Shown here: piece after piece, positions 57,001 through 60,000 of the stretch
Numbering within the stretch: position 1 is the stretch's first letter
Layout of the letters: each line of letters starts with the position of its first letter
DNA from: Escherichia coli
Lineage (GTDB): Bacteria; Pseudomonadota; Gammaproteobacteria; Enterobacterales; Enterobacteriaceae
DNA: 64,000 bases
Assembly: GCF_044324875.1 (NCBI RefSeq)
Contig: NZ_CP172185.1
Strand: one strand, 5' to 3'
Position numbers: made by a program

Positions 57001-60000
57001 TTTGGAATCGCAATACCCTTGAGCGGTAGGCAGGTTGCGAATCACGTCAACGAGGATTTCATCTGGCGCGTCAAAACCGAACGGGGCAGGGTTGCCGATG
57101 TTCAGTTTCAGTACCTTGTTACCTTCTTCTTCCAGGCGTTTTGCTTCTTTCAGCACCGGACCACGGATGTCGTAACAGACATTCTCTAATTTGCTGGATT
57201 TTTCAATGGGGGACATGAATCTTGACCTTTTTTGCTGTTATCGCCACTCCCTGCCGTGGAAGTCAGCTTAGAACAATGTACTCCCCCAGGACGGCGTTTT
57301 GAAGGTCTGCAGAATAAGATTTTGCCAGAGGGGAAGACTCGATTGTGCTGTTAATAACTTAATAATGGCAAAATAATGAGGTGTATATGCTTAGTAATTA
57401 ATGTTATGTAGTGAATTGTTCTGATTCTTAATTGTGAGTGTGGTTTTTTTATCTGTAAGATAATTGTTTGAAAATGCCTCGTTTAAGAATTCACTAATGA
57501 ATCGTGATGATGATATTTCCGCATTACGGAGAGTTTAACAGCGTGATGATTTCCGAGGTGTCGTAATGGGTGCAAGGTGTGAAACTATTGTTAAGCGGGA
57601 TTAATGAATGAGGATGATGCTAATTAATTATTATTTAATATTCAAAAAGGTTTTGTTGTGCTTATTAATAATAGAAGATTACTTTGCCTAACATAACATA
57701 ACTTTGCATCAGATAATTCGCAATGACCCTTATAAATAAAAGGTTTTTGGGGTAAAATGCTCGCATAAATGACGGATCCCTGCTCTTGATGCCGCCTCAC
57801 CATTGCTGTTTGTACGTGTTCGCGTATGACCAGCGATGCTGCACGAGAGTGGAACAAGGACTCACATTTACATTTATACAAACACGCGCATGTCATAAAT
57901 ACAAAAGAGTGAGTAACTTAATAGATATGCGATTCCTGAAGATATATTCTGTGATCTACTTCAGGCATTATAACGGAACAATGTGAGTCGCTTTTTTAGT
58001 GCAACTCATATGCATTTTTACTTTCGTCCGGGTTCCGGATGAAACTGCCAGGGAGGCACATTACAAATGGAATTGCTTGTTTGTGTGTGCACAGCATTAA
58101 CCAGCTCAGTATGAGCCGCCAGTAAGTGATAATATATGATAAGTGCAAATCGTCCGATAATTAACCTCGACCTCGATCTGCTGAGAACATTTGTTGCTGT
58201 TGCCGATCTGAACACTTTTGCTGCCGCAGCTGCCGCTGTGTGTCGTACTCAGTCCGCCGTAAGTCAGCAAATGCAGCGTCTGGAACAACTCGTTGGGAAA
58301 GAACTGTTCGCTCGTCACGGTCGCAACAAACTGTTAACTGAACATGGCATTCAACTTCTTGGTTACGCCAGAAAAATTCTGCGTTTTAATGATGAGGCCT
58401 GCTCATCATTAATGTTCAGTAATCTTCAGGGCGTGTTAACTATCGGTGCTTCAGATGAATCTGCCGATACGATCTTACCTTTCCTGTTAAATCGCGTGAG
58501 TTCGGTTTATCCGAAACTAGCGCTGGATGTCCGCGTTAAACGTAATGCCTATATGGCAGAAATGCTGGAATCCCAGGAAGTGGATTTGATGGTAACCACC
58601 CATCGTCCTTCAACGTTTAAGGCATTGAACCTGCGTACCTCGCCAACACACTGGTACTGCGCAGCGGAATACGTATTGCAAAAAGGCGAGCCGATCCCTC
58701 TTGTATTGCTGGATGATCCTAGCCCGTTTCGCGATATGGTGCTGGCGACGCTTAATAAAGCAGATATTCCATGGCGACTGGCTTATGTCGCCTCGACGCT
58801 TCCGGCAGTTCGTGCGGCAGTAAAAGCCGGTCTTGGCGTGACGGCAAGGCCGGTCGAGATGATGAGTCCAGACCTGCGTGTGCTGAGTGGAGTAGATGGC
58901 TTACCGCCGCTACCCGATACCGAATATTTGCTGTGCTATGACCCGTCCAGTAATAATGAGCTGGCCCAGGTGATCTATCAGGCGATGGAGAGCTACCATA
59001 ATCCGTGGCAATACAGCCCAATGTCTGCTCCGGAAGGCGATGACTCATTGTTGATTGAAAGGGATATCGAGTAATCGACGGACCATAGATAATTTCTGAG
59101 ACAATAGTGTAAAAACGAGCCGCTGGGGGTGTTTTAAACCCCAGCGGCTTTTTTTTAGTAAAAAGCCTTCCTCGTATCGTGCAGAACGTACAAAACTGTT
59201 CATTTTTCAATCACCAGAGATTCACGTCCCGAACGCACAAATAATCGCCTGAAAAAAATCACCTGCTACAATGATGTTAAAAAATACGTAAATTTGTTGC
59301 TGCGTTTTTGTTATGGAATGACAAAAGCGTGTCACAGATCAAGAAAATACTCTCTTTTGGGGGGAGGAATCGACACAAATTCCTGTCAAAATAGACCCGT
59401 ATTTTTTCCATTGCTTCACAACGGACACGATTCAACAACATCTAATTATCCTGGAGTCGTCAAGGATCTGGGGTGAAAGGGCATTAAATGCTAATGGTGT
59501 TGATATTATGTAAACTAATGTGAAGAAACTTTTGTTAAAGTTGACAAAAGGTTATAGAAAGGAGTAAAAGACCACATCAATTAGCTGTATAAAAGAATTT
59601 CTACAGTGATTGTAAGGTTTTTTTTATTCCTCCCCATGAATCGATGTGGCGTCCATCTGCCGTGAAGAGCAGTGAATCTGGCGCTACTTTTGATGAGTAA
59701 GCAATGAGTATGTCAACATCCACTGAAGTCATCGCTCATCACTGGGCATTCGCTATCTTTCTTATCGTTGCCATTGGCCTGTGTTGCCTGATGCTGGTAG
59801 GCGGTTGGTTTTTAGGCGGTCGCGCACGCGCAAGGTCGAAAAACGTTCCGTTTGAATCCGGTATCGACTCGGTCGGCTCCGCCCGCTTACGCCTGTCCGC
59901 CAAGTTTTATCTGGTGGCCATGTTCTTCGTTATCTTCGACGTTGAAGCGCTGTATCTGTTCGCATGGTCAACCTCTATCCGCGAAAGCGGCTGGGTAGGC

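Follow-up and report, generated by a model that had tools for sequence, protein, structure and literature searches.

Mapping of the 919-bp gap between the divergent genes alaA and lrhA of Escherichia coli as a probable shared regulatory region

In a stretch of 64,000 nucleotides of the E. coli contig NZ_CP172185.1 (the window), the divergent genes alaA and lrhA are separated by a gene-free gap of 919 bp at positions 57217-58135, which we regard with high confidence as the shared, already described regulatory region of the two genes. Published experiments have shown both transcription start sites (TSSs), Hfq binding, repression by three small RNAs (sRNAs), RNA 3' ends within the lrhA leader and occupancy by OmpR. 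New here is the placement of these published features on one coordinate frame together with their conservation over 79 Enterobacteriaceae loci. In the mechanism we propose, a sigma-70 alaA promoter (TTCAAA-17-TACATT) with a conserved upstream box would drive a 52-nt leader with a 26-nt 5' fold, an untranscribed AT-rich spacer of ~496 bp would hold conserved blocks bound by transcription factors of lrhA (published cases are OmpR binding and autoregulation by LrhA), and a sigma-70 lrhA promoter (TTATAA-17-TAAAAT) would drive a 371-nt leader. Within the last ~110 nt of this leader the Hfq-dependent sRNAs UhpU, ArcZ and RprA would block translation and/or trigger mRNA decay, with McaS pairing there as well, and the lowered LrhA level would de-repress flhDC and motility. 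LrhA stands at the top of the E. coli network of motility, fimbriae and RpoS, and its control region decides between swimming and settling. Owing to this network position the region has already been dissected by TSS maps, Hfq coimmunoprecipitation, RNA interaction by ligation and sequencing (RIL-seq), RNA sequencing after MS2-affinity purification (MAPS), Term-seq, systematic evolution of ligands by exponential enrichment (SELEX) and chromatin immunoprecipitation (ChIP).

The alaA gene occupies 55999-57216 on the minus strand with its ATG at 57216, and lrhA occupies 58136-59074 on the plus strand with its ATG at 58136, leaving exactly 57217-58135 between them. In the annotation by the Prokaryotic Genome Annotation Pipeline this is the longest intergenic gap of the window, the runners-up having 658 and 629 bp. 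The original prediction of a 919-bp AT-rich noncoding region between divergent alaA and lrhA, the longest gene-free stretch in the window, was thus accurate to the nucleotide. With a GC content of 0.382 the gap is poorer in GC than the window (0.51), coding sequences (0.516) and other intergenic DNA (0.47). The same prediction spoke of strong AT-richness with many A/T tracts; the AT-richness is real, but the 14 tracts of at least 4 nt are not above chance (11.7 +/- 3.1 in composition-matched shuffles). The AT-richness is also uneven: GC falls to its minimum of 0.315 in the spacer core (57330-57700) and is 0.423 in the lrhA leader and 0.50 in the alaA leader. In all, the gap has three parts: the alaA leader (52 nt), a spacer without transcripts (496 bp) and the lrhA leader (371 nt). 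It is 100% identical in E. coli strain 1190 and was found in 5,425 of 5,426 complete E. coli genomes; no annotated feature lies under the match in the 20 records listed or in the MG1655 RefSeq record. Note that the window runs opposite to MG1655, the conversion being MG1655 coordinate = 2464777 - window coordinate.

The lrhA TSS maps to U00096.2 coordinate 2405034, which is window position 57765 and gives a 371-nt 5' untranslated region (UTR) (Kim 2012, Table S1). The upstream sequence printed there matches the window except for the final bases around +1 (GA in K-12, CA here). The lrhA mRNA was later described as having an "unusually long 371 nt 5' UTR", and the primer used for the lacZ fusion starts at ATAAATGACGG, again window position 57765 (Melamed 2023). 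The long regulatory lrhA leader suggested by the original prediction is therefore real: it has 371 nt, binds Hfq and is a target of UhpU, ArcZ, RprA and McaS. Transcript mapping shows more than two short leaders, namely this long one, one of 52 nt and RNA species derived from the leader. The mapped transcript features are as follows.

57765-58135, plus strand: lrhA 5' UTR, 371 nt (Kim 2012 TSS; Melamed 2023; Hfq coimmunoprecipitation).
57844, plus strand: RNA 3' end at +80 of the lrhA leader (Adams 2021 Term-seq, MG1655 2406933 on the minus strand, two growth conditions).
58086, plus strand: RNA 3' end at +322 from the TSS and -50 from the AUG (Adams 2021 Term-seq, MG1655 2406691, Rho score 1.06, not significant).

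Hfq coimmunoprecipitation recovered this region as fragments of ~150 and ~350 nt, which were first classed as intergenic. The same upstream probe also shows an lrhA transcript of ~1.5 kb, a ~1.25-kb species is visible only with a coding probe, and lrhA mRNA is increased in an hfq mutant (Bilusic et al. 2014). With Term-seq 3' ends at +80 and +322, the "intergenic" Hfq-bound RNAs are explained as fragments of the lrhA leader and not products of a separate gene. Cleavage at +80 of the 1,341-nt transcript that runs from the TSS to the 3' end would leave ~1,261 nt, a size that fits the ~1.25-kb species seen with the coding probe.

A separate Hfq-binding sRNA gene that has escaped annotation (the "ig-lrhA-alaA" RNA) and acts in trans, for example as a sponge of McaS or ArcZ, would also account for the two coimmunoprecipitated bands and their first classification as intergenic, for the discrete 3' ends at +80 and +322, and for the behavior of McaS, which yields the most RIL-seq chimeras with lrhA yet leaves an lrhA-lacZ fusion unchanged; possible inhibition of McaS was suggested (Melamed 2023). 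However, the sole plus-strand TSS in the gap (Kim 2012) is that of lrhA, the leader contains no further conserved promoter-like block, and the upstream probe detects the ~1.5-kb lrhA mRNA too. Moreover, a scan found no canonical terminator in the gap: the +80 end lacks a U tract, and at the +322 end, which does not depend on Rho, the last-column value is 3.7, which we read as an intrinsic-terminator score by analogy with other rows and which is borderline. The gap belongs to no Rfam family, and the +322 fragment stops just 5' of the predicted RprA/McaS site and so would lack most of it. A separate sRNA gene is for these reasons improbable, and the unannotated sRNA envisaged by the original prediction gives way to the lrhA leader as the source of the RNAs.

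The Rfam search (Rfam 15) gave one match with E below 1, all others having E values of at least 2. This match, to RF02080 (STnc170) at 57465-57540 on the minus strand (76 nt), scored 20.4 bits against a gathering threshold of 80, covered 73 of 333 model positions and was rejected as a chance match. STnc170, a Salmonella candidate sRNA, adjoins SL1458, a different locus, and the matching stretch is among the least conserved of the gap.

Conservation was assessed in loci obtained by a genome scan with LrhA, in which 80 Enterobacteriaceae loci from dozens of genera were kept; Klebsiella, whose LrhA orthologue is 66% identical, falls outside this set. alaA is divergent and adjacent in 78 of the 80 loci, with gaps of 764-1,140 bp and GC contents of 0.35-0.44. 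Gap sequences from 79 loci were aligned with MAFFT, and the identity figures given here are relative to E. coli across 78 loci. The alignment has four conserved zones: 57217-57326 (alaA leader, promoter and box), 57577-57642 (distal lrhA block), 57707-57758 (lrhA proximal box, -35 and -10) and 58047-58135 (proximal lrhA leader). The distance between the two TSSs has a median of 495 bp with an interquartile range (IQR) of 489-498.5, and is held although ~250 bp of the spacer are only ~33% identical to E. coli. The length of the spacer core 57330-57700 is likewise conserved (IQR 364-372.5 bp), in contrast to that of the lrhA leader, which varies from 334 to 587 nt across loci. These comparisons show selection on both promoters, on two upstream boxes at fixed distances, on the last ~110 nt of the lrhA leader and on promoter spacing, but not on 250 bp of the spacer or on 260 nt of the distal lrhA leader. 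The constraint on spacer length is possibly new. The original prediction would have been undercut had conservation been confined to the core promoters; conserved blocks exist beyond them, in the upstream boxes and in the proximal lrhA leader.

The sRNA evidence concerns the proximal leader. RIL-seq chimeras join the lrhA leader to UhpU, ArcZ, RprA and McaS; UhpU, ArcZ and RprA repress lrhA-lacZ, and for UhpU a compensatory pair of mutations, which restores repression, proved the pairing (Melamed 2023). In published RprA MAPS data lrhA was enriched 744-fold, and RprA induces decay of lrhA mRNA. We sought the pairing sites by windowed local duplexes, full-length duplexfold having given meaningless long interactions, and place the elements of the proximal leader as follows.

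58113-58125, plus strand: UhpU pairing site GAGCCGCCAGUAA, experimentally validated (compensatory pair of Melamed 2023).
58047-58056, plus strand: predicted ArcZ pairing site GCCAGGGAGG, in a duplex with ArcZ UUUCCCUGG of -19.7 kcal/mol; other sites are about equal and the placement is tentative.
58088-58110, plus strand: predicted pairing site of RprA and McaS from local duplexes, with the core GCACAGCA at 58089-58096 and a conserved CACAGC.
58069-58078, plus strand: conserved motif GGAAUUGCUU, 89% identity, no assigned partner.
58104-58116, plus strand: small hairpin in the minimum free energy (MFE) fold, GCUCA-GUA-UGAGC, immediately 5' of the ribosome-binding region.

The blind duplex prediction placed UhpU nt 220-245 on 58103-58128, a segment that includes the compensatory position 58120: the lrhA-M1 gBlock carries a C-to-G change at 58120 (-16), and UhpU-M1 turns ACTGGTGAC into ACTCGTGAC (supplementary oligonucleotides of Melamed 2023). 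The full predicted ArcZ duplex lies on 58029-58056 and that of McaS on 58084-58108. The RprA duplex (-18.9 kcal/mol) was the best hit for that sRNA, and the McaS duplex (-19.0 kcal/mol) was one of four near-equal hits. The sites of the four sRNAs all lie within the final ~110 nt, where the leader is conserved. Identity is 94% for CACAGC, 62% for the UhpU site and 50% for the ArcZ site, versus 33% for the distal leader. All 816 E. albertii genomes analyzed in a published study share an identical UhpU site. The pairing sites thus appear to be under purifying selection. The motif GGAAUUGCUU in the leader is possibly new. At the position of the small hairpin, other genera have GGUCA...UGACC or GCUC...GAGC, which gives it qualitative support; RNAalifold on the automatic alignment returned no consensus for 58104-58116. 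Within 58069-58102 the leader stretch GGAAUUGCUUGUUUGUGUGUG resembles the RprA seed region CGAAUUGCUGUGUGUAG and is directly followed by the RprA-complementary GCACAGCAUU. An alternative intramolecular pairing of GGAAUUGCUUGUUUGUGUGUG with GCACAGCAUU is conceivable, and consensus folding gave it no support. CsrA binding at a GGA motif was considered, and no supporting paper was found.

The same conserved block bears on another explanation, in which the gap codes for small proteins (one or several) or the lrhA leader contains a regulatory upstream open reading frame (ORF) such as MELLVCVCTALTSSV at 58068-58115. The gap does contain several ORFs of 15-84 codons, and this 15-codon ORF starts in the highly conserved block, 11 nt after GGGAGG. 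However, its ATG is replaced by ACG, AAG or AGG in other genera while GGAAUUGCUU is kept, and it was rejected as a candidate. More generally, neither frames nor start codons are conserved. Among the 17 ORFs of the gap, 12 have no intact counterpart in any other locus and 4 have one only in close relatives. The last, which runs antisense to the conserved alaA promoter and leader, is alone in staying intact beyond Escherichia and a few Citrobacter. The MG1655 RefSeq annotation, rich in small proteins, shows nothing here. Small proteins are therefore very unlikely, and the suggestion of unannotated ones lapses.

Upstream of lrhA, the promoter and spacer contain the following elements.

57730-57758, plus strand: lrhA sigma-70 promoter, with -35 TTATAA at 57730-57735, a 17-nt spacer and -10 TAAAAT at 57753-57758 (Kim 2012 TSS).
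57707-57724, plus strand: proximal upstream box CATCAGATAATTCGCAAT, -58 to -41 of lrhA, 71% identity.
57577-57642, plus strand: distal upstream block of lrhA, -188 to -123, TGTGAAAnTAnTGTTAAG...ATTAATGAAT...AATTAATTATTATTTAATATT, 62% identity.
57330-57576, no strand: least conserved and most AT-rich part of the untranscribed spacer, ~33% identity over 78 loci, no mapped TSS (Kim 2012).

The lrhA -35 is 95% conserved and the -10 is 82% conserved (it reads TAAGAT in 50 loci), and both are correctly placed for the lrhA TSS in all 79 aligned loci. The box CATCAGATAATTCGCAAT keeps a constant distance of 19 bp to the -35 (30 of 35 loci) and may be an RcsB box or an autoregulation site of a LysR-type transcriptional regulator, both of which it resembles; lrhA is known to be positively autoregulated. 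In 53 loci the TGTTAAG motif of the distal block is separated from the lrhA -35 by 141 +/- 1.5 bp. An OmpR ChIP-chip peak at lrhA/alaA is common to E. coli and Salmonella; the E. coli peak center converts to ~57674, while alignment places the OmpR motif of Salmonella at ~57637-57656. The lrhA promoter coincides with SELEX peaks of the sigma-70, sigma-32 and sigma-E holoenzymes, and a list of long spacers regulated by multiple factors includes the "920 bp-long lrhA-alaA" spacer (Shimada et al.). The shared OmpR peak, the three sigma peaks and the conserved upstream boxes support the presence of binding sites of regulatory proteins in the gap; which proteins bind the conserved boxes we can only infer. 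AA/TT periodicity in the spacer gave a peak at ~10.5-10.75 bp only as the average of the 79 related sequences; E. coli by itself does not show it, the leader has a similar peak, and the helical periodicity is not convincing.

Two repeats were noted in the spacer. An imperfect direct repeat TAATGAAT(N)GATGATG occurs at 57495-57518 and 57602-57625 (79% identity, 107 bp apart), its second copy falling inside the conserved distal lrhA block, and AAAAGGTTTT is present twice, at 57645 and 57738, 93 bp apart.

That the spacer is a horizontally acquired or decayed AT-rich remnant silenced by H-NS, with no function beyond the core promoters, fits its low GC (0.315 in the core) and the ~250 bp with only ~33% identity across genera, but it is highly implausible given that the gap is syntenic in 78 of 80 loci, that 5,425 of 5,426 E. 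coli genomes have it and its architecture is kept in 79 loci, that the distance between the promoters varies by only about +/-5 bp with two upstream blocks at fixed distances, that the Shimada table marks H-NS at other spacers and not at lrhA-alaA, and that insertions in the gap alter regulator output in two genera. These rivals (an independent sRNA gene, small proteins and an H-NS-silenced remnant) are all weak beside a regulatory region shared by alaA and lrhA.

The alaA side of this shared region is compact.

57217-57268, minus strand: alaA 5' leader, 52 nt, TSS at 57268 (Kim 2012), 47-53 nt long in 79 loci.
57275-57303, minus strand: alaA sigma-70 promoter, with -10 TACATT at 57275-57280, a 17-nt spacer and -35 TTCAAA at 57298-57303, placed right for the mapped TSS.
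57310-57324, minus strand: alaA upstream box CAAAATCTTATTCTG, -42 to -56, candidate Lrp site, 69% identical.
57243-57267, minus strand: 5'-terminal hairpin of the alaA mRNA, leader nt 2-26 (MFE fold), with the core CUUCC-ACGGCA-GGRAG at 57247-57262.

We predicted the alaA TSS from conservation (an invariant TTCAAA and TACATT around a variable 17-nt spacer) before the TSS table was found. The table gives the yfbQ/alaA TSS at U00096.2 coordinate 2405531, which is window position 57268, with a 5' UTR of 52 nt, and its printed upstream sequence matches the window except for one strain single-nucleotide polymorphism (Kim 2012, Table S1). The two hexamers are 99% conserved, against 55% for the spacer between them. 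The box CAAAATCTTATTCTG lies a fixed 42 bp from the alaA -10 in 47 of 49 loci. It agrees at 13 of 15 positions with YAGHAWATTWTDCTR, which we take to be the Lrp consensus, and on this likeness of sequence it is put forward as a candidate Lrp site; a literature search for alaA with Lrp found nothing relevant.

The 16-nt core of the alaA hairpin, CTTCCACGGCAGGRAG, is 96% identical (78 loci), compared with 97% at codon positions 1 and 2 of alaA and 80% at third positions. Pairing is kept in 43 distinct sequences, in which 81% of cells are paired versus 32-63% with a slid partner, and the lower stem varies compensatorily (pair 13-30 is AU in 23, GC in 10 and GU in 8). The whole-leader folding z-score is unremarkable, Rfam has no match for the hairpin, and the window contains no second copy of the core beyond chance. 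This hairpin appears undescribed. It begins at nt 2 of the mapped transcript and so leaves one unpaired 5' nucleotide, within the 0-2 nt expected of a 5'-terminal stabilizing stem-loop. A hairpin close to the 5' end of an mRNA, of the type of hp1 in the ompA 5' UTR, hinders 5'-end-dependent attack by RppH and RNase E. The alaA hairpin resembles these stabilizers in being a stem-loop at the 5' end, and our best guess is that it likewise shields the 5' end of the alaA mRNA from such attack. However, hp1-type stabilizers require the stem alone, whereas the alaA hairpin has a 6-nt loop (ACGGCA) and an upper stem that are near-invariant across genera, which suggests sequence-specific recognition; the loop may be read by some factor. 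If the loop were read by a specific protein or RNA, this would couple the synthesis of alanine transaminase to a signal, beyond passive protection. A pairing of GcvB ACUUCCUG with CAGGRAGU of the alaA leader was rejected: the best duplex (-21.1 kcal/mol) is no better than those of shuffled leaders (-19.8 +/- 1.9), and a literature search for alaA with GcvB found no link.

Two bolder readings, that the fixed ~495-bp promoter distance reflects a higher-order nucleoprotein complex coupling alaA and lrhA transcription or that the alaA hairpin is a cis-regulatory element read through its loop, are conceivable though doubtful.

Several observations weigh against the regulatory reading of the gap. 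The distal 260 nt of the lrhA leader are poorly conserved (33%) and have no assigned function. The leader has no conserved global fold: its folding z-score is strong only in E. coli (-2.9 to -3.25), being +0.4 in E. albertii and -2.8 to +1.1 in 12 other genera, and RNAalifold finds no consensus on the proximal leader. The sites given for ArcZ, RprA and McaS were predicted from duplex energies and have close competitors, and the proposed identities of the boxes (Lrp, RcsB and OmpR half-sites) depend on likeness to consensus sequences. RNAalifold supports only 5 pairs of the alaA hairpin with a weak consensus energy of -3.8 kcal/mol, and the sequences are related. A consensus promoter scan missed both true promoters, each of which matches at 8 of 12 positions, and gave two hits elsewhere, fewer than expected from shuffles. 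The hexamers picked from SELEX by Shimada et al. disagree with the mapped TSSs. Nothing among these points contradicts the overall picture, the gaps being confined to details.

The leaders of rpoS, csgD and flhDC are well-established sRNA hubs through which many signals converge on the node of motility, biofilm and stress. The lrhA leader is of the same kind, a long Hfq-dependent 5' leader of a global regulator that is addressed by several sRNAs including ArcZ, RprA and McaS. It differs in that all of the tested effective sRNAs repress lrhA and in that the pairing sites cluster in the last ~110 nt, close to the ribosome-binding site. At the level of the whole gap, the closest parallel is the Serratia alaA-pigU gap, which has the same divergent gene pair (pigU is the lrhA orthologue) and with which the upstream regions of hexA, pecT and rovM are grouped. 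Transposon insertions there raise expression of the regulator and give strong phenotypes, and the Serratia paper cites E. coli insertions in the alaA-lrhA gap that likewise over-express the regulator.

Natural isolates may carry comparable lesions. In 42 of the 5,425 E. coli genomes no single match covers as much as 80% of the gap, and the matching places outnumber the records by 28, which suggests insertion sequence (IS) insertions or deletions. Such isolates could be motility variants, since insertions here over-express lrhA. In E. coli strain SCPM-O-B-12142 (NZ_CP144928.1, 3501-5900; window ~57383 onward) the gap match ends after 167 bp, an IS1 transposase coding sequence lies ~50 bp past the match end, and the chromosome resumes in elaD/rbn, indicating that lrhA and the neighboring nuo side have been deleted.

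Elsewhere in the window, the second-longest gap (6995-7652, 658 bp, from sixA to a fimbrial operon) is not AT-rich, having a GC content of 0.495; the spacer next to sixA on the K-12 map (yfcV-sixA) is flagged as H-NS-bound in the Shimada table. In the neighboring lrhA-nuoA gap, Term-seq recorded a very strong "orphan" 3' end at MG1655 2405082, window position 59695, 9 nt upstream of the nuoA ATG (Adams 2021). Within 59644-59703 of that gap, an 18-codon ORF, MWRPSAVKSSESGATFDE, runs from an ATG at 59644 to a TAA at 59700 and stops 3 nt before the nuoA start.

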